Assembly: GCA_041654015.1 (NCBI GenBank)
Contig: JBAZEI010000001.1
Coordinates: 1-60,533 of the forward strand
Direction: 5' to 3'
Source: Minisyncoccota bacterium
GTDB taxonomy: Bacteria > Patescibacteriota > Minisyncoccia > UBA6257
DNA length: 60,533 nt
The number at the start of each line of letters is the position of its first letter. Within the stretch, counting starts at the first letter, position 1. A program made the translations under genes and the position numbers. The notes beneath the pieces were generated by a model. The model saw only the letters and a list, made by a program, of their open reading frames with translations. It was not told the DNA's origin and made no database searches. This document shows positions 3,930-23,315 of this stretch, in pieces.

Positions 3930-5150
3930 ATGAGTTCTCCTTTTTTAGCTATAGATTTAGGGTCGGCAAATATAAAAGCGTTAGTGGCTCAAATTGACGC
4001 CCAAGAAGGGTGGAAAATTATTTTGCCAATTTCCCGCGAATCCAAAGGAATTAAAGAAGGAGTGCCCAATAATTTAGAAGAAACCGCCGAAGAGCTCGAT
4101 GCTTTAATAGTTGAGATAGAAGCAATGCTTAAAAATGTTGTTTTTAGGGAGGCAATTGTGGGTATCGGAGGTTCCCATTTAGAAACTCGTCTTTCAAAAG
4201 GGGCCGCGGTTGTTAGTCGTCCTGATCAAGAAATAGGCGAAGATGATGTTAATAGAGCCAATAAGGCGGCAGAGGCTTTTGCTTTGCCTCCAAACAGGAG
4301 CTTAATTCAAACTGCCTTAAAAAGTTATGTTGTTGACGGGGTAGCAAAAGTAAAAGACCCAATAGGGATGAAAGGATTAAAGATAGAAACCGAGTGCCTT
4401 TTAATAGATGCTTTTACCCCTTTTATTCACTCTCTTGACCGTTTGGGAGAGATGATTAATATAAGATTTAATCCGAAATTTATTTTGCCTTATGCCGGGG
4501 CAGAAATAGCGCTTACGGCTCAGGATAAAGATTTAGGAGCAATGGCTTTGGATTTAGGCGCCGGCACCACCAGCTTTTGCATTTATGAAAATAATGAGAT
4601 TTTAGATTTGAAGGTTTTTCCAGGAGGAGGGAACGCAGTGACAAATGATATTGCTATCGGTTTAAAAACTAGTGTTAATATCGCCGAAAAAATTAAAATT
4701 AACGAGGGCATAGCTCTGAGAAATAAGGTCGCTAAAAATGAGAATATTGACTGGGATGCTTATTATGAAGAGGATAATGTTGGTGATAAAGTGAGCAAAA
4801 AATTTTTAGCCGAGATAATTGAGGCCCGTTTATCTGAAATTTTTGATTTAGTAGCCAAGAGATTAAAAGAAATTAATCCCTCTCTAAAATTACCTGGAGG
4901 CGTGGTTATATATGGAGGAGGAGCAAAAATGCCTTTTATTATTGATTTAGCAAAAGAGAGATTGAAGCTTCCGGTGCGGCCGGCAAAACCAGAAATAGAA
5001 TGGTATCAAGAGTCGCCAGACCTTAGTTTTATTCCATGCTTGGGGCTGCTGGCTTTGAAAGTTCAGGGCCAAAAAGAAGGTTTTCTGCCGCTGGAATCAG
5101 GGATATTGGCAAAAATAACTCGCTTTTTTAAAAATACTTTTTCTATTTAA
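3930..5150 (+). CDS. ftsA: Cell division protein FtsA
   Basis: Actin-fold blocks LAIDLGSANIKALV, GIGGSHL, LDLGAGTTSF, GGGNAVTNDIA and VIYGGGAKMP. Lies directly upstream of ftsZ. Confidence 0.85.
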   Translation: MSSPFLAIDLGSANIKALVAQIDAQEGWKIILPISRESKGIKEGVPNNLEETAEELDALIVEIEAMLKNVVFREAIVGIGGSHLETRLSKGAAVVSRPDQEIGEDDVNRANKAAEAFALPPNRSLIQTALKSYVVDGVAKVKDPIGMKGLKIETECLLIDAFTPFIHSLDRLGEMINIRFNPKFILPYAGAEIALTAQDKDLGAMALDLGAGTTSFCIYENNEILDLKVFPGGGNAVTNDIAIGLKTSVNIAEKIKINEGIALRNKVAKNENIDWDAYYEEDNVGDKVSKKFLAEIIEARLSEIFDLVAKRLKEINPSLKLPGGVVIYGGGAKMPFIIDLAKERLKLPVRPAKPEIEWYQESPDLSFIPCLGLLALKVQGQKEGFLPLESGILAKITRFFKNTFSI

Positions 5151-5159
5151 TTTAAAATT

Positions 5160-6416
5160 ATGAAAAAAAGAAGCAAGAAAAATAAAAAAAATAAAAAAGA
5201 AGAAGCTTTGAAAAAAGTGAAGCCTGAAAAAAAGACAAAACCGCGGAAGAAACAGAAACTAAAAGTGAAACCAAAGCGAAAAGAAAAAGGAGAAAAAGAA
5301 ATAAAAGAATCTTCTAACAGACGTATTTCTATAAAAATAGTGGGTGTTGGCGGAGCTGGCGGCAATGTAGTTACGAGAATGAAAGAAAAAAAGGTTGAGG
5401 GGGTTGATTTTATCGCTATCAATACAGATATTCAGGGCTTACATCATACAAAGGCCGATTTAAAAATTCAAATTGGAAAAGAATCTTGCAAAGGGTTGGG
5501 AGCGGGAATGGATCCATTGCGAGGGAAGGAAGCGGTAGAAGAGAATATTGAAGAAATCCATCAGGCAGTTCAGGGCGCTGAAATGATTTTTTTGGCTTGC
5601 GGCTTGGGCGGCGGAACAGGATCTGGCGCTTCGCCAATTGTCGCCAATTTAGCTAAACAGGCAGGCGCTTTGGTTGTCGGTGTGGTGACTAAACCATTTG
5701 CTTTTGAAGGAGAAAAAAGATTAGATATTGCTGATGAATCCTGGCAAAAACTTTTTAATGAAGTTGACGCTTTGGTGACGATTCCCAATGATAGAATCTT
5801 TAATATTATTAATGAAGAAACGCCAATTTTAGAGGCTTTTTCTAAAATTGATGATATTTTACGTCAGGGAGTGGAGGCAATAGTTAATTTAATTTCTTAT
5901 CCCGGCTTAATTAATTTGGATTTTGCCAATATTCGGACAATTCTGACAGAGGCAGGCAGCTCTTTATTGGGCATCGGTGTTTCTAAAGGACAGGATAGGG
6001 CTAAAAAAGCGGCAGAATTAGCAATTTCTTCGCCTCTTTTAGATATTTCAATTGAAGGAGCAAGGCGGGTTCTTTTTAATGTTGCTGGGACAAAAGATAT
6101 GTCTTTGGTAGAAATTCATAATGCTGCTCGGGTGATAACTCAATCAATAGCCAAAGACGCTCAAGTAATTTTTGGCGCCAGTTTTGATAATGATCTTCGT
6201 CAAGGAGAAATTAAAGTTACTGTTATTGCTGGTGGCTTTGGAGAAGAATTTCGCGAATTAAGGCCGGCATTGCCGTTGGAGATTAAAATCCCAATTAATA
6301 AGGGGACAAACGAAAAAGAAGGCGAGGAAGAAAAACAAAAGCAGGAAGAACAAAAAGAAGAATTTGAAATCCCGGCCTTTCTGCGTCGAAAAAACAAAAT
6401 AAACGGAAATTCATAA
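5160..6416 (+). CDS. ftsZ: Cell division GTPase FtsZ with a Lys-rich N-terminal extension
   Basis: GVGGAGGN, tubulin signature GLGGGTGSGASPIVA, E/K-rich linker, C-terminal peptide EEFEIPAFLRRK. Confidence 0.95.
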   Translation: MKKRSKKNKKNKKEEALKKVKPEKKTKPRKKQKLKVKPKRKEKGEKEIKESSNRRISIKIVGVGGAGGNVVTRMKEKKVEGVDFIAINTDIQGLHHTKADLKIQIGKESCKGLGAGMDPLRGKEAVEENIEEIHQAVQGAEMIFLACGLGGGTGSGASPIVANLAKQAGALVVGVVTKPFAFEGEKRLDIADESWQKLFNEVDALVTIPNDRIFNIINEETPILEAFSKIDDILRQGVEAIVNLISYPGLINLDFANIRTILTEAGSSLLGIGVSKGQDRAKKAAELAISSPLLDISIEGARRVLFNVAGTKDMSLVEIHNAARVITQSIAKDAQVIFGASFDNDLRQGEIKVTVIAGGFGEEFRELRPALPLEIKIPINKGTNEKEGEEEKQKQEEQKEEFEIPAFLRRKNKINGNS

Positions 6417-17903: not shown

Positions 17904-18263
17904 ATGCAACAAATAATAACAGAAAGCTTAATGACGAATTTTTGGCTGCTTGCTTTATTCCTTACTTGGAGCTTAATTTGGAAAGGATTGGCATTGTGGA
18001 AAGCGGCAAGAAATGAACATAGATGGTGGTTTATCGCTTTGTTGATTATAAATACAGCAGGCCTTTTAGAAATAATTTATATTTTCTTTTTTAGTAAAAA
18101 GAAAGAGTTTGTAGAAAAGAAGCCCTCCGCCGCTTCCACCTCCGCTAAAGCTTCGGTGGATAAAAAAGCTATGGAGGATAAGCCCTCCTCTGCTTCCACC
18201 TCCGCTAAAGCTTCGGTGGATAAAAAAGCTATGGAGGACAAGGAAGAAACAATAAAAGAATAG
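17904..18263 (+). CDS. Small membrane protein (DUF5652-like) with a repeat-encoded C-terminal tail
   Basis: Two TM helices (LWKAARNEHRWWFIALLIINTAGLLEIIYIFFF). The tail contains two 20-aa repeats, PS.ASTSAKASVDKKAMEDK. Confidence 0.55.
   Translation: MQQIITESLMTNFWLLALFLTWSLIWKGLALWKAARNEHRWWFIALLIINTAGLLEIIYIFFFSKKKEFVEKKPSAASTSAKASVDKKAMEDKPSSASTSAKASVDKKAMEDKEETIKE
18121..18240 (+). repeat. Tandem 2 x 60-nt in-frame repeat related to the 'CGCTAAAGCT' hairpin family
   Basis: Units 18121..18180 and 18181..18240 differ at 3 positions. Each contains tccacctccgctaaagcttcggtgga...gctatggagga. Confidence 0.9.
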
Positions 18264-18374: not shown

Positions 18375-19571
18375 ATGGATAAAAGCAAGCTTTTAGCTGA
18401 TAGAATGAGGCCTAATGATTTAAGCGATTTTTTGGGTCAAGATGAGTTAGTAGGTAAAGGAAAATTATTAAGACAGGCGATAGAGTCAGATAAAATTCCT
18501 TCAATGATTTTTTGGGGGCCGCCCGGAAGCGGTAAGACTACCTTGGCTTATATTATTGCTCAAAAAACCAAGTCAGAGTTTAAACAAATTAGCGCTGTTT
18601 CCAGCGGCTTAAAAGATTTAAGAGATATTTTAAGAGAAGCAGAAGCCAATAAAAGATTGGGAGTAAAGACAATATTTTTTATTGACGAAATCCATCGTTG
18701 GAACAAATCCCAACAAGATGCTTTGTTGCCGCATATAGAAAAAGGTAGCATTATTTTAATTGGCGCGACTACAGAAAATCCAAGTTTTGAAGTGGTGGGA
18801 CCTTTGCTTTCCCGCTGCCGGGTTTTTGTTTTAAAACAATTATCCAAAACTCATTTATTTAAAATTCTTAAAAGAGCTTTAGAAGATAAGGAAAATGGGT
18901 TAGGGGAATTAAAGATTAAAATAAATGATGAGGTTGTTAATCTTATCGCTGGAATGAGCAATGGCGACGCTAGAATCGCCTTGAATGTTTTAGAATATGC
19001 CTCTTCTTTATCAAAGAATATTACAGAATCAATTGTTAAAGAATCTTTTCAAAAATCAAATTTGTTTTATGATAAAGACGGTGAAGAGCATTACAACATT
19101 ATCTCCGCTCTTCATAAATCAATGAGAGGTTCTGACGCTAATGCGGCTTTATATTGGTTAGCTAGGATGCTGGAAGCAGGAGAAGACCCTTTATATATTG
19201 CCCGTCGGTTAATCCGCTTTGCTTCGGAAGATATTGGTTTGGCAAATTCTCAGGCTTTGGAGCAGGCAGTGGCCGCTTATGAGGCCTGCCATTTTATTGG
19301 GGTTCCGGAATGTAATGTCGTTTTGGCGCAAGCGGTTGTTTATATGGCAAAATGCAAGAAATCCAACGATTTATATACGGCTTATGAAAAAGCGGCAGCT
19401 GATGTTAAAAAATTTGGCAATTTGCCTGTTCCTCTTCATATTCGCAACGCGCCGACATCGTTAATGAAAAACCTAGGTTATGGTAAGGGATATAAATACA
19501 GCCCCAATTATAATTATAAAGAGAAACAAGAATATTTCCCCCCAGAATTAAAAGGCAGAAAATATATTTAG
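18375..19571 (+). CDS. rarA: Replication-associated recombination protein A (AAA+ ATPase RarA/MgsA)
   Basis: Walker A WGPPGSGKTT, IFFIDEIHRWNK, LIGATTENPSFEV, and the MgsA C-terminal block HYNIISALHKSMRGSD. Confidence 0.85.
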   Translation: MDKSKLLADRMRPNDLSDFLGQDELVGKGKLLRQAIESDKIPSMIFWGPPGSGKTTLAYIIAQKTKSEFKQISAVSSGLKDLRDILREAEANKRLGVKTIFFIDEIHRWNKSQQDALLPHIEKGSIILIGATTENPSFEVVGPLLSRCRVFVLKQLSKTHLFKILKRALEDKENGLGELKIKINDEVVNLIAGMSNGDARIALNVLEYASSLSKNITESIVKESFQKSNLFYDKDGEEHYNIISALHKSMRGSDANAALYWLARMLEAGEDPLYIARRLIRFASEDIGLANSQALEQAVAAYEACHFIGVPECNVVLAQAVVYMAKCKKSNDLYTAYEKAAADVKKFGNLPVPLHIRNAPTSLMKNLGYGKGYKYSPNYNYKEKQEYFPPELKGRKYI

Positions 19572-19578
19572 CAAACAC

Positions 19579-19606
19579 TTGACATTCATTTTAGATTTGC
19601 TATACT
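19579..19606 (+). promoter_or_regulatory. Sigma-70-like promoter TTGACA-16 nt-TATACT
   Basis: ttgacattcattttagatttgctatact. Confidence 0.65.
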
Positions 19607-19612
19607 CTCCTT

Positions 19613-19693
19613 GGTGTTATTTTTAAGCCGCAAGGCCTATAAATAACACCATTGCTGTCGTTTTTGGCTTGCCAAAGGCGGCAGCATTTTTTT
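19613..19693 (+). ncRNA. Candidate ~80-nt small RNA, copy 1
   Basis: Lies downstream of its own promoter. Hairpin 1 is GGUGUUAUUU..GCC-GCAA-GGC..AAAUAACACC (GNRA loop). Hairpin 2 is UGCUGUCG..UUGGC-UUG-GCCAA..CGGCAGCA followed by U7, which looks like an intrinsic terminator. No ORF. Confidence 0.45.
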
Positions 19694-19705
19694 ATATTAA
19701 AACAT

Positions 19706-19722
19706 AGGAGAACTGTTCTCCT
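19706..19722. repeat. 17-nt perfect palindrome AGGAGAAC-N-GTTCTCCT (3 copies in the window)
   Basis: Also at 45482..45498 and 45715..45731. GTGTT follows in all three copies. Confidence 0.9.
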
Positions 19723-19730
19723 GTGTTTTA

Positions 19731-19773
19731 CGGCCAAGGTAAAAATATATAAAAGTAAACCTTGGCCGTTTTT
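19731..19773 (+). terminator. Hairpin + T-run (terminator-like)
   Basis: CGGCCAAGG-20 nt AT loop-CCTTGGCCG-ttttt. Confidence 0.5.
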
Positions 19774-19804
19774 CATTTAGTTTATTTTAAGCTATAATGT
19801 AAGC

Positions 19805-20412
19805 ATGAAATTACAATTTCTATATTCCAAAATTAAAGAAAAAGAAAAGCTATTGGATATTTACGAAGAATATCAATGGTTTGTTGATAATAATTTTCCC
19901 ATTGTTGTACCTAAATTTTATACCAAGATTTATCAAAAAATAAAAAGAATAAAAAAAATTTTGTTAAGGAGTTAAGTATAGAGTTAAATAAAAAATATGA
20001 TGAAAATGATTACCAGCGAAAAAGCGAGAAGATAAAAAATAACTGGCAAAAAATTGAGCAAGATTTTTTTAATACTCTGAAAAGTTTTAATTTTAAAATA
20101 AAAGATAAATATATTTGTTATATTTCTTTGTATGGGCCGTCAGGGCAGTTTAATTATCCAGGAGTCATTAATTTACGGGTGAGCAATACCAAAGACATTA
20201 AAGAAGCCAACAAAACAATTGCTCATGAGTTGATTCATTTGTTTATTTACAACAAGGTAAAAAGATTAAAATTGAATTACAAACAAATAGAGGGTGTAGT
20301 TGATTTGTTTTTTACAGAAACAAAATTAAAAACTATTTTCCCGCGATATAAGCTGCAAAGTATAGCTATTTATAACAAAAGATTGTTTGAGGAAATAAAA
20401 GAAGATTTATGA
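19805..20412 (+). pseudogene. HExxH-motif protein with an apparent frameshift in a poly-A tract
   Basis: ATG 19805 opens MKLQFLYSKIKEKEKLL..YQKIKRIKK and stops at 19972..19974. The frame of the track ORF (20128..20412, AHELIHL) is already open from 19915. The two frames overlap across the A6/A8 runs at 19935..19958. Confidence 0.5.
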
Positions 20413-20807
20413 GAAAAAACCAACGAGCCGGAGTAGCAATAAAGCAAGGTGAAAAATTTCTATTAATAAAGAGGAAAAAAGGCAATGATATTTATTATAT
20501 TCTACCAGGAGGTGGCGTTGAGTCAGGCGAAACTCCAAAACAAGCGGCGATTAGAGAGGTAAAAGAAGAATTAGGTATTGATGTAATAATTGATAAGAAG
20601 ATTGCTGACTTTAAGCACAGAGGCAATACCGAATTTTATTTTTTATCAAAAGATTTTAATGGAGAAATTAAATTAGTCGGGGATGGTGTATTTAATTCAA
20701 ATATTACTGATACAGAGGAGTGGGTTTTAATTGAAGATCTTCACAAAATTAACTTACTGCCCGAGAAGATTAAAAATATTCTAATTAGATTATTTACGCA
20801 AACATAA
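20409..20807 (+). CDS. Nudix hydrolase
   Basis: Nudix box [28 protein letters not shown] overlap with the upstream ORF. Confidence 0.8.
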
Positions 20808-20892
20808 ATGATTTCAAAATTGTTTTATATATAAGACAATAATCTATCTTGGTAAAAACCGCCATATGTGTGTGGACATTACCCACAGGGGG

Positions 20893-20921
20893 TTGACAAA
20901 TTGAAAAGAAAGAGATATACT
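20893..20921 (+). promoter_or_regulatory. Sigma-70-like promoter TTGACA-17 nt-TATACT
   Basis: gggggTTGACAaattgaaaagaaagagaTATACT, about 70 nt upstream of the radical SAM gene. Confidence 0.6.
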
Positions 20922-20995
20922 TGAGGTAGATTTAGAGAAGATCGAGTCTTGCACCTTGAAAATTAAAAAAATTTAAAAGAAAGGAGGTGAATGAA

Positions 20996-22291
20996 ATGGA
21001 TAATTCATTAAGAAAGAAACAATTTGATCCCGTTAGTATGGTTTCATTTTCATCAAAAAAATATGCAATAATTGAGCCAAATAAAATAATTTTCGTTGTT
21101 GATTCGAGTGAAAAACAAGTAGAAGATTTGGTTAAAAAAGAGAAAGCAGCATTTAAAAAACAATTTCAATCTAATAGCTTTCTAGAAAAAAGAAGACAAA
21201 ATTTAGTAGCCTTAACTCTCTTACCAACAAGGGACTGTAATTTACGTTGCATCTACTGTTATGCAAAAGGCGGAGAATACTTTACTTATATGCCGCTCCA
21301 AGTAGCTTTTTCATCATTAGATGCTTTAGCAAAAAATGCTGATGGTAAAGATATTATTCTTAAGTTCGCCGGAGGCGGTGAGCCGTTTATGAATTTTGAG
21401 CTTATGCAGAAAGCATATAAATATGCCAAAGATCTTTTTAATAAAGTATATCCTGCCGTAGTAACTAATGGAACTTTCAACTCTGAACAATTGGATTGGA
21501 TTTTAGAAAATGATGTATCACTGAGACTTTCCTTTGATGGTATAGCTCATGAAAAACAACGACCATTTAAAGATAATACCTCGTCATTGGAAATAGTTGA
21601 AGAGAATATTAAGAGATTAATTTCCGCTAATAAAAGTTTTATGATAGAATGTATAGTTACGAATGAAAGTGTTCGCAAAATGGCAGAAACAGTAGCTTAT
21701 GTATCACAACTTGGTATTTCGGTGTTAAAAATTGAGCCTGTTCATATATCTGAGATTTCACGAGGTGATTCTTCAATGATACCGACCCCACAGGAATTTG
21801 TGAATAACTTTTTAGTAATGTTGGAGTATATTGTAGACCATAATTTAAAGATAAAAATAGATACAGGATTTTTTTCTAAGCCATCAATAAATGCTTACTG
21901 TTATGTTAATGGGAGAAATTTAATTATTACTCCTGAAGGAAACATTACTTCTTGTGTTGAGGTTACGAAAAAAACAGATCCATTTGCTGAAATGATGATT
22001 TACGGCTCAGTTTTAGTAAAAAAAGGAATTTTTTCTTTTAATAAAATTGCTTTATCTAAGCTCAAAACTTTGCATTTTAATAATTGTAGAAAATGTACTG
22101 ATTGTAGGTTAAGATTAATTTGCGGCGGTGGATGCTCTATGAGAAATCTTTGGGATAATGGGTTTCCATTAAAACCTTCAAAATACATCTGTCAGATAGA
22201 GCATTTGCTTATTCCCGAGATTTTTTCTTTAGTAGTGGATGATTCTTCTTACAGTGACATTCTTTTTGATGATGTAGAAATTAATTGTTAA
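20996..22291 (+). CDS. Radical SAM / SPASM-domain peptide maturase
   Basis: CNLRCIYCY (CxxxCxxC). C-terminal auxiliary-cluster Cys pattern CRKCTDCRLRLICGGGCSMRN plus an upstream CYVNG...SCVEV. Start set at ATG 20996, 8 nt after AAGGAGG (the track start is GTG 20987). Confidence 0.85.
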   Translation: MDNSLRKKQFDPVSMVSFSSKKYAIIEPNKIIFVVDSSEKQVEDLVKKEKAAFKKQFQSNSFLEKRRQNLVALTLLPTRDCNLRCIYCYAKGGEYFTYMPLQVAFSSLDALAKNADGKDIILKFAGGGEPFMNFELMQKAYKYAKDLFNKVYPAVVTNGTFNSEQLDWILENDVSLRLSFDGIAHEKQRPFKDNTSSLEIVEENIKRLISANKSFMIECIVTNESVRKMAETVAYVSQLGISVLKIEPVHISEISRGDSSMIPTPQEFVNNFLVMLEYIVDHNLKIKIDTGFFSKPSINAYCYVNGRNLIITPEGNITSCVEVTKKTDPFAEMMIYGSVLVKKGIFSFNKIALSKLKTLHFNNCRKCTDCRLRLICGGGCSMRNLWDNGFPLKPSKYICQIEHLLIPEIFSLVVDDSSYSDILFDDVEINC

Positions 22292-22346
22292 TATATAAAC
22301 AAAAACTGTATAGGAAACTATATAGGACAAAAAGAGGTGAATTAGG

Positions 22347-22469
22347 ATGAAAATAATTGTTATTAAATGGAAATCTACTGATAGTCGTGAGCAATCTGAT
22401 CAATTAGTGGGAGCAGCACATCCTGGTTGTTGTAGCCAAGACGGTGGTTGTCCGAAGAAACATGGATAG
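22347..22469 (+). CDS. 40-aa Cys-rich candidate RiPP precursor peptide
   Basis: Below the ORF-track length cut-off. Own translation: MKIIVIKWKSTDSREQSDQLVGAAHPGCCSQDGGCPKKHG. SD-like AAAGAGGTGA lies 6-7 nt upstream. It is 55 nt downstream of the maturase on the same strand and is followed by a hairpin + T-run. Confidence 0.55.
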   Translation: MKIIVIKWKSTDSREQSDQLVGAAHPGCCSQDGGCPKKHG

Positions 22470-22492
22470 GGTTAGTCAAGTAATGAGTATCA

Positions 22493-22558
22493 AAGGGGGG
22501 CCTTTGCAAGTGATAATCAAAATAATATAGGGGTGCTTGATATAAGCCCCCCTTTTTT
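22493..22558 (+). terminator. Terminator-like hairpin (GGGGGGC ... GCCCCCC + T6)
   Basis: aaGGGGGGC-44 nt-GCCCCCCtttttt. The long loop makes this call uncertain. Confidence 0.45.
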
Positions 22559-22586
22559 ATAATATTAAAGGTAATAATATCAACAT

Positions 22587-23315
22587 ATGAAGGAGAGGAT
22601 TGATGTTGTAATAGCAAAAAAGAAGCTAGCTAAAAGCCGGACTATGGCTGAAAATTTAATAAAAGCTGGCTTGGTTAAAGTTAATGAAAAACGAATTTTT
22701 AAACCAAGCACCAAAGTATCCGAGGACGATATAATAAAAATTGCTTCTTTACCAAAATATGTAAGTCGAGGGGGATTAAAACTGGAGAAGGCTTTAGATG
22801 TTTTCGAAGTTGATGTGAAAAATCTAGCAGTACTTGATGTAGGCTCTGCAACAGGTGGTTTTACAGATTGTTTATTGCAAAGAGGGGCAAGACATATTTA
22901 TGCAGTTGATGTCGGCTATGGGCAATTGGATCAAAAATTAAGAAAACAATCAAAAGTTTCGGTGTATGAGAAGACTGATATTAGGAATTTAAAAAAGTTA
23001 CCAGAGAAAGTAGATCTAGTTACAATAGATGTATCCTTTATCTCGCTTCTTTTAGTTTTACCCCATATTCCAAAATTATTAAAACATCCAGGGGAAATTA
23101 TCGCTCTTATAAAACCTCAATTTGAGGTTGGTCCCGGAAAAGTTAAGAAAGGAATTGTAAGAGACGAAAAGCTTAGAACGTTAGCGATAGAAAAAATTAA
23201 AAGATGGATTTCTGATCGCAATTGGCAAATAAAAGGATTAATAGAGTCTCCAATTAAAGGAAAATTTGGAAATATTGAGTATCTGATTTATCTAAAAATC
23301 AATACTGATAAATAA
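22587..23315 (+). CDS. tlyA: TlyA-family rRNA 2'-O-methyltransferase (S4 + FtsJ domains)
   Basis: S4-like N-terminus, YVSRGGLKLEKAL, and SAM motif VLDVGSATGGFTDCLLQRGA. Confidence 0.8.
   Translation: MKERIDVVIAKKKLAKSRTMAENLIKAGLVKVNEKRIFKPSTKVSEDDIIKIASLPKYVSRGGLKLEKALDVFEVDVKNLAVLDVGSATGGFTDCLLQRGARHIYAVDVGYGQLDQKLRKQSKVSVYEKTDIRNLKKLPEKVDLVTIDVSFISLLLVLPHIPKLLKHPGEIIALIKPQFEVGPGKVKKGIVRDEKLRTLAIEKIKRWISDRNWQIKGLIESPIKGKFGNIEYLIYLKINTDK

Follow-up and report, generated by a model that had tools for sequence, protein, structure and literature searches.

A two-gene locus in the genome of a Minisyncoccota bacterium (GenBank assembly GCA_041654015.1, contig JBAZEI010000001.1, positions 1 to 60,533 of the forward strand; this whole 60,533-nucleotide stretch is referred to below as the window) encodes a radical S-adenosylmethionine (SAM) enzyme of 431 residues with a SPASM-type C-terminus and, directly downstream, a peptide of 40 residues. 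The two genes probably form a maturase–precursor pair for a ribosomally synthesized, radical-SAM-modified peptide of ranthipeptide-like type. In ranthipeptides, a Cys sulfur is bonded to the acceptor residue at a carbon other than alpha (beta or gamma); in sactipeptides the bond is to the alpha carbon. An earlier note on this DNA, made from its letters alone, had proposed a cassette of the sactipeptide or ranthipeptide type, and that proposal is supported by the class of the enzyme and by the conservation of the small open reading frame (ORF). Judged by sequence, the putative pair belongs to a previously unnamed family.

The enzyme is identical to a database protein (P0001) labeled "radical SAM protein" from Candidatus Paceibacterota bacterium. 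Approximately 100 further full-length homologs were retrieved at 33-49% identity and one at 76%, nearly all of them metagenomic, and those that bear a name are called merely "radical SAM protein" or similar. Pfam assigned only the generic Radical_SAM domain (PF04055, E = 5e-14, 53 bits against a cut-off of 29.5), and the Pfam SPASM model had no match to the enzyme at E ≤ 0.1. The cysteine spacing, C302-x12-G315-x4-C320, C367-x2-C370-x5-C376-x3-C380 and C399, is that of the canonical SPASM pattern (Cx9-15Gx4C...Cx2Cx5Cx3C...C). In an alignment of 97 homologs, the seven SPASM cysteines and the C81-x3-C85-x2-C88 motif are invariant, and G315 is conserved in at least 90% of the sequences. The radical SAM enzyme with a CNLRCIYCY motif and a SPASM C-terminus that the earlier note described can thus be read directly from the sequence and is mirrored in its homologs.

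Profile and structure comparisons place the enzyme among peptide maturases. Its best NCBIfam match was PapB (NF047865; 127 bits, E = 7.9e-37, residues 70-393 over the whole model), with further scores of 118 bits for the nif11-like radical SAM maturase, 94 for SCIFF, 82 for CcpM, and 49 for the anaerobic sulfatase-maturating enzyme (anSME). The top matches are maturases that either form thioethers at Cys or have Cys-rich partner peptides. Sactisynthase models scored lower (StsB 60 bits and RumMC 40 bits in NCBIfam; SkfB 66 bits as a PDB profile), although these scores do not settle the chemistry. When the alignment profile was compared with the PDB, CteB ranked first (E = 3e-41, 145 bits) and anSME next (3e-24, 89 bits). 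The AlphaFold2 model of the enzyme was confident (predicted local distance difference test score 94.7, predicted template modeling score 0.93), and a Foldseek search with it again returned CteB as the best match (E = 2e-20, TM 0.70) and anSME as the second (E = 4e-18). Identity between CteB and the window enzyme is only 19-20%. In sequence and fold alike, the enzyme is closest to peptide maturases that form thioethers, not to the sulfatase maturase; the profile check suggested in the earlier note points to the PapB/SCIFF/CteB maturases and away from anSME and cofactor clades.

The association between enzyme and peptide was assessed across related loci (handles beginning with L), which were retrieved with the enzyme profile: 80 from species-representative genomes and 80 metagenomic, with 5 more added by exact-protein look-up. 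A locus was assigned to the family if its enzyme scored 170 bits or more against the window enzyme or if it had the peptide, and peptides were found by six-frame searches beside the enzyme genes. Of the 107 family loci, 87 have the peptide motif no farther than ~1 kb from the enzyme gene, and most of the peptide-less family loci are contigs that end within 250 nucleotides of that gene. Where both flanks are complete, 58 of 62 loci carry the peptide, compared with 0 of 59 outgroup radical SAM loci, a set that includes many Candidate Phyla Radiation (CPR) and DPANN loci. The four full-flank loci without it hold borderline enzyme relatives (29-33% identity), and the surroundings of two of these, L142 and L160, contain other candidate peptides. 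Among 18 DNA versions of the window-like core, codon positions 1, 2, and 3 had entropies of 0.31, 0.24, and 1.28, and a GGAGGTGA-type ribosome-binding site precedes the peptide in most related loci. Given the co-occurrence and the third-position variation, the small ORF is protein-coding, under purifying selection, and tied to the enzyme. The earlier note had located a 40-codon ORF 55 nucleotides past the enzyme gene; its coordinates are confirmed (the gap between the enzyme stop codon and the peptide ATG is exactly 55 nucleotides), and its conservation beside homologs, on which that note had staked its reading, is what the 58 of 62 and 0 of 59 counts and the coding-type substitutions show. 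An RNA element in place of an ORF was considered and rejected, as an Rfam scan of 19500-22700, which included the intergenic region 19572-19800, gave no match at E ≤ 1 and the third-position variation reflects coding selection.

These counts also bear on the idea that the enzyme is a sulfatase-maturase-like or other non-RiPP (ribosomally synthesized and post-translationally modified peptide) radical SAM protein whose neighboring ORF is coincidental. We regard this as extremely improbable. anSME shares the SPASM fold (TIGR03942; PDB 4K36-4K39) and is the second-best match by structure and by sequence, but the window enzyme reaches only 49 bits against the anSME cut-off of 349, no sulfatase gene occurs in the window flanks or in related loci, and anSME lacks the family-specific N-terminal domain, a leader-binding candidate described below. 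A dedicated small peptide partner, as seen in the window family, further separates the two.

The family comprises 57 distinct peptide sequences, in all of which G-C-C is invariant. Three positions before the first Cys stands H, or E in a minority, and three positions after it Q in 49 peptides, K in 5, and E in 3, which gives the universal core GAA[H/E]PGCCx[Q/K/E]. Three types can be distinguished: type A, to which the window peptide belongs (...G[A/M][A/S]HPGCCxQ[D/N/G]GGC[G/P]KKHG); type B (...MMGAAESGCCRQxGSPCSxKK[F/Y]S); and type C, which stops just past the double Cys (...DDGKQSxxLxGAAHPGCCKQ). Across systems, the peptides range from 26 to 60 residues. The third Cys and the KKHG tail are missing from 23 variants that stop at ...GCCxQ. 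Because type C ends there, the tail DGGCPKKHG is dispensable, and the essential modification would lie within or just before GAAHPGCCxQ. The pattern that the earlier note had seen, a leader followed by a short C-terminal Cys core, is therefore retained, whereas its three-Cys core is not universal. Several side observations concern variant peptides. In L088 (~2300-2460) the peptide gene is frameshifted within the core, either through an assembly error or as a pseudogene, and in L003 (5272-5469) the type B peptide is extended by a 16-codon read-through. Radical SAM relatives at a greater distance (31-33% identity) occur in L142, where the gene is followed at ~5270-5340 by MKKVTVTFHDDKRRGRQKGECKH, with a similar leader and a different core, and in L148 (~1560-1900) and L160 (~5150-5560), where long CSC/CxC-repeat peptides are candidate precursors.

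The position of the peptide gene varies (downstream, upstream, or after tlyA), but it stays near the enzyme gene. Type C peptides are placed upstream of the enzyme gene in DPANN loci (L009, L013, L016, L017, L019, L027, L123, L127-L131, and L150-L156) and after tlyA in L094 and L096-L098. This variability argues against an alternative that casts the small ORF as a leader peptide regulating tlyA by attenuation, in the manner of erm leaders, and not as an enzyme substrate. The window arrangement, with the ORF followed by a hairpin and T-run and then by tlyA, would suit such a role. The upstream placement in DPANN and the placement after tlyA do not, nor do the 17 loci in which the peptide precedes an acetyltransferase gene with no tlyA. 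In addition, the amino acid core is conserved far beyond the needs of stalling peptides, and the hairpin is not significant. Attenuation is thus very improbable and, on the positional data, close to refuted.

Two further genes recur beside the module. The first, tlyA, encodes a TlyA-family methyltransferase that in the window scores 250 bits against the TIGR00478 cut-off of 185.8 and matches both PF01479 and PF01728, narrowly missing the 23S-specific equivalog NF049952 (231 vs 250). It adjoins the module in 61 of the 107 family loci, in bacteria and archaea alike (L001, L008, L009, L013-L017, L081-L098, L123-L140, and others), overlaps the stop codon of the enzyme gene in some DPANN loci (L130, L156), and is convergent in type B loci. 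The second, a specific GNAT acetyltransferase gene, lies directly after the peptide in 17 loci. Each GNAT copy shares 43-79% identity with the closest of three query copies, and the best match is RimI, below its cut-off. In L117 the order is enzyme, peptide, GNAT, and tlyA, consecutively; the window locus has no such GNAT gene. The earlier note had described a minimal two-gene system; the module is usually more than a bare pair, since tlyA or GNAT is linked in 52 of the 62 full-flank loci. The corresponding count beside outgroup radical SAM genes is 0 of 59.

The N-terminal region of the enzyme suggests how the peptide may be recognized. In the AlphaFold2 model, three beta-strands (residues 14-35) and then one helix of 31 residues (39-69) make up the first ~70 residues. 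Matches to the window enzyme begin at residue ~58-81 for outgroup radical SAM genes and at 6-29 for family members; this domain is restricted to the family. It may serve as a leader-binding element. On the peptide side, the N-terminal strand is an aromatic leader (hydrophobic-x-hydrophobic-x-W/F) common to all peptides. The leader Trp is invariant in the 80 called homologs, and the position is W, rarely F, in all 57 variants. A canonical RiPP recognition element (RRE) is a PqqD-like winged helix in which a three-strand sheet is followed by three helices; the window enzyme differs in having one long helix after the sheet.

By analogy with characterized maturases, a mechanism can be proposed. 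The 40-residue precursor would be translated from its own Shine-Dalgarno site, in a frame under protein-level selection. Its KIIVIKW strand may dock by strand pairing on the N-terminal sheet and helix of the enzyme, which would place the GAAHPGCCSQ core in the active site. There, the CxxxCxxC cluster would cleave SAM, and the resulting 5'-deoxyadenosyl radical would abstract hydrogen from a carbon of the core. One of the adjacent cysteines, probably coordinated, as in CteB, at the open site of auxiliary cluster I, could then form an intramolecular thioether. The acceptor could be the residue at the third position ahead of the first Cys (H, E, or N), the one at the third position past that Cys (Q, K, or E), or a C-alpha of the backbone. 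In some lineages, speculatively, the GNAT might acetylate the product.

Comparison with the closest known systems gives this proposal both precedent and limits. The SCIFF system CteA-CteB of Clostridia (PDB 5WGG, 5WHY) resembles the window pair in combining a radical SAM enzyme, a seven-Cys SPASM domain, and an N-terminal peptide-binding extension with a short precursor whose Cys-containing core is highly conserved, in a minimal cluster that lacks a dedicated transporter. The biological role of SCIFF peptides is still enigmatic. The window enzyme, however, scores 94 bits against a cut-off of 425 for the SCIFF maturase model (TIGR03974), and the SCIFF precursor contains six Cys whereas the peptides here contain 2-3 and match no SCIFF model, with no NCBIfam hit for seven variants at E ≤ 10. 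In place of a detectable winged-helix RRE, the window enzyme has the three-strand sheet and one helix, and its family occurs in CPR, DPANN, and reduced Bacilli, linked to tlyA or GNAT. PapB acts on PapA (freyrasin), where it bonds the sulfur of a Cys to the side-chain carbon of an Asp or Glu within C-x3-D motifs. It is the best NCBIfam match, and the window core contains C28-x3-D32. Here, too, the likeness is partial: the PapB score of 127 bits compares with a cut-off of 340, the spacing is not conserved in the family (the D position is D, N, G, S, or K), and PapA has six repeated motifs in contrast to the single CC site. The match to the nif11-like maturase (TIGR04064) covers the N-terminal extension (residues 24-212 of the enzyme against 32-228 of the model), but its 118 bits fall below a cut-off of 519, and the window precursor is not a Nif11-type leader peptide.

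Several findings weigh against a ranthipeptide-like assignment. No curated NCBIfam family cut-off is reached by the enzyme, or even approached, and the PqqD/RRE Pfam profile has no match in it at E ≤ 0.1. Only G-C-C is invariant, so that conservation singles out no acceptor, and the reactions of radical SAM/SPASM enzymes also include C-C and C-O crosslinking, residue epimerization, and oxidation of Cys to formylglycine. No transporter or protease is conserved in the related loci examined, and approximately 10 of the 62 full-flank loci lack both tlyA and GNAT, four of these being the borderline relatives that also lack the peptide. Moreover, the tlyA linkage could be inherited synteny and not function. 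With these points taken into account, a ranthipeptide-like maturase–precursor pair remains the probable reading.

As to the role of the product, a conserved physiological factor of reduced-genome symbionts, comparable to the SCIFF peptides, is more likely than a variable bacteriocin. A conserved cellular or host-interaction role is favored by the almost unchanging core, the missing export genes, the confinement of the module to organisms with reduced genomes, and the tlyA/GNAT linkage. The tightness of the tlyA linkage suggests a connection between the module and the ribosome. A more specific version, in which the product is a ribosome-directed factor common to CPR, DPANN, and reduced gut Bacilli that has moved between domains with its maturase and TlyA, is unlikely as it stands. 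Such a factor could be an endogenous ligand at a site made or protected by TlyA, or a toxin of episymbiosis for which TlyA and GNAT provide self-protection.

The same linkage could be read as the signature of a translation-targeting toxin or antibiotic directed against hosts or competitors, with TlyA and GNAT as self-protection. Thiostrepton and nosiheptide clusters carry a 23S 2'-O-methyltransferase, and capreomycin clusters carry an acetyltransferase together with an rRNA methyltransferase. The 52 of 62 against 0 of 59 linkage and the consecutive gene order of L117 fit this picture, and the near-invariance of the core would follow from a target as conserved as the ribosome. Antibiotic RiPPs usually have variable cores, however, and neither an exporter nor an immunity membrane protein nor a leader protease is conserved. 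The TlyA looks like an ordinary family member at 250 bits to TIGR00478 and may be the only housekeeping copy in the genome, and approximately 10 of the 62 full-flank loci, as noted above, lack both neighbors. We therefore consider a toxin quite unlikely.

A third possibility is that the peptide is a precursor or scaffold, like PqqA or MftA, of a small cofactor, redox agent, or metal ligand (His/Cys-Cys/Cys/His), supplying something that reduced-genome organisms cannot otherwise make. The extreme conservation of the core across domains, the lack of export genes, and the minimal peptides that stop right past the modified region (...HPGCCKQ-COOH) are in keeping with this, and C-terminal cores are typical of MftA. 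The enzyme speaks otherwise, as its nearest relatives are crosslinking maturases and not PqqE or MftC: PqqE appears at Foldseek rank 38, and no mycofactocin or PQQ model is found among the 25 best NCBIfam matches listed. Nor is a peptidase or any further tailoring enzyme conserved nearby. A cofactor role is thus distinctly unlikely, and a conserved factor carrying a radical-SAM-made modification is preferred.

By the labels of database records, the family spans Patescibacteria (Parcubacteria/Paceibacterota, Vogelbacteria, WWE3, and bins labeled Saccharibacteria), DPANN archaea (Pacearchaeota, Woesearchaeota, Nanoarchaeota, Micrarchaeota, and ainarchaeum), and Bacilli/Bacillota bins. The rarity in CPR-type genomes that the earlier note had expected is not borne out, given that the family is widespread and extends to DPANN archaea and gut Bacilli. 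A near-identical version is present in seven large metagenome contigs (L134-L140), of which only L139 is named as human gut. Between the two domains of life, enzyme identity falls to about 30-35%, with the core nearly unchanged. L096, a 778-kb contig on which an L10e ribosomal protein gene of archaeal type lies just upstream, encodes an enzyme 48% identical to that of the window, above the 36-41% of titled type B loci, which belong to Patescibacteria or CPR bins apart from one bin labeled Azospirillaceae. Because this archaeal enzyme is closer to the window enzyme than the CPR type B enzymes are, the sequences suggest transfer of the family between domains. Carriage by mobile elements was considered and rejected: phage and plasmid records contained no close relative, and their best matches, at 30% identity or less, belong to other radical SAM families.

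The precursor is nearly invisible to current annotation. The window peptide has no match in Pfam or NCBIfam even at E ≤ 10, nor do six further variants in NCBIfam at that threshold. A single-sequence search with the window peptide found only itself, since few small ORFs are called as genes. A profile performed better: among 5.8 billion proteins it recovered 80 called copies of 30-92 residues, all "hypothetical protein" or unnamed. An exhaustive profile search of 1.84 billion representatives added a few more small proteins along with spurious repeat-protein matches, and it found no fusion of the peptide core to a larger protein. The large hits (P0202, P0203, P0209, and P0216) arise from repeated matching of the leader region (xTVTWNxPG...) and were judged spurious; P0216, the sole one inspected, is an unrelated repeat protein. 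Full-text literature searches, whose coverage leaves out many subscription papers, returned no description of the family, the HPGCC motif included. Most gene callers miss the precursor, and genome mining has probably overlooked the family. CPR bacteria and DPANN archaea are usually described as nearly devoid of biosynthetic gene clusters, and one survey reports none in the Patescibacteria genomes that it covered. If the proposed reading is true, the module would be among the few conserved specialized traits of ultra-small symbionts. The system is also tiny, one enzyme and one 26-60-residue peptide, and is suited to direct testing; HPGCCKQ, the minimal C-terminal core of seven residues, offers an unusually simple substrate for work on SPASM-enzyme chemistry.

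The layout of the window locus is given in Table 1, together with recurrent neighbors in related loci. Both genes have the strong Shine-Dalgarno sequences that the earlier note reported. The consensus promoter it placed ahead of the enzyme gene is present as a site, but carries little weight, as such sites are not enriched locally (13 found in the region vs 18.8 expected). Similarly, the hairpin and T-run that it saw after the peptide gene exist, with stem arms AAAGGGGGGC and GCCCCCCUUU at 22492-22501 and 22546-22555 and a loop of ~44 nucleotides ahead of the T-run. The folding energy is no better than that of shuffles, and a terminator scan did not call the structure, whose loop exceeds 8 nucleotides; a terminator is nevertheless plausible.

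Table 1. Features of the window locus and recurrent neighbors in related loci (window coordinates unless a locus is named)
Feature	Coordinates	Strand	Basis or remark
Sigma-70-like promoter candidate, TTGACA-17-TATACT	20893..20921	+	Matches at 11/12 positions; suggestive only
Shine-Dalgarno of enzyme gene, GGAGGTG	20983..20989	+	6 nt ahead of ATG at 20996; read from sequence
Radical SAM/SPASM peptide maturase (putative), 431 aa	20996..22291	+	Pfam, NCBIfam, PDB profile, AlphaFold2, Foldseek
Family-specific N-terminal domain, aa 1-72	20996..21211	+	AlphaFold2 secondary structure; putative leader-binding element
CxxxCxxC radical SAM cluster motif (C81, C85, C88; CNLRCIYCY)	21236..21259	+	Invariant in 97 sequences
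SPASM domain, 7 invariant Cys (C302, C320, C367, C370, C376, C380, C399)	21899..22192	+	
Shine-Dalgarno of peptide gene, GAGGTG	22334..22339	+	7 nt ahead of ATG at 22347
Precursor peptide gene (putative), type A, 40 aa	22347..22469	+	Product MKIIVIKWKSTDSREQSDQLVGAAHPGCCSQDGGCPKKHG
Leader strand KIIVIKW (hydrophobic-x-hydrophobic-x-W)	22350..22370	+	
Universal core GAAHPGCCSQ, aa 22-31	22410..22439	+	G27, C28, C29 invariant
Tail DGGCPKKHG	22440..22466	+	Type A only; missing from type C peptides
10-bp GC-rich stem, large loop, T-run	22492..22558	+	Possible terminator; z = -0.96, not significant
TlyA-family rRNA (cytidine-2'-O)-methyltransferase, S4 + FtsJ	22587..23315	+	TIGR00478; conserved module neighbor
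GNAT acetyltransferase genes	L005 2203-2685; L007 4236-4727; L010 5476-5967; L103 5438-5902; L117 1787-2248; L161 7509-8477; L165 7505-7987		
NUDIX hydrolase genes near module (with, in L161, a second, shorter radical SAM/SPASM gene)	L161 716-1741 and 2515-2988; L163 10659-11132; L103 2973-3077; window 20409-20807		Not established as partner

Two other neighbors were considered as partners and set aside. Upstream of the module, two ORF fragments, 19805-19975 and 19981-20412 (the broken HExxH gene being read as 19805-19975 plus 20128-20412), lie in different frames and together look like one ~200-residue gene broken by a frameshift. The fragments contain HELIH and have weak SprT, M76, and DUF2268 matches (E ~0.01-0.03). 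As a candidate leader protease, this HExxH gene was rejected, since its SprT-like matches are weak (E ~0.01) and no homolog occurs in any related locus. The earlier remark that no transporter or protease is adjacent stands for related loci in general, whereas the broken gene, which it had singled out as an exception, is not conserved with the module. The NUDIX gene recurs no more than a few kb from the module in the window, L103, L161, and L163 but varies in distance and orientation among them, and its partnership was judged not established. L161 also contains a second, shorter radical SAM/SPASM gene 4 kb upstream.

Elsewhere in the window, the 230-nucleotide intergenic region at 19572-19800 contains an extended -10 promoter close to consensus (19579-19606) and, after it, three hairpins, of which the one at 19653-19686 is a 15-bp terminator-like stem with a T-run; the region could encode a small RNA. 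Farther upstream, 17904-18263 is a small membrane-anchored ORF with a perfect tandem C-terminal repeat, (P/A)S(A/S)ASTSAKASVDKKAMEDK x2.

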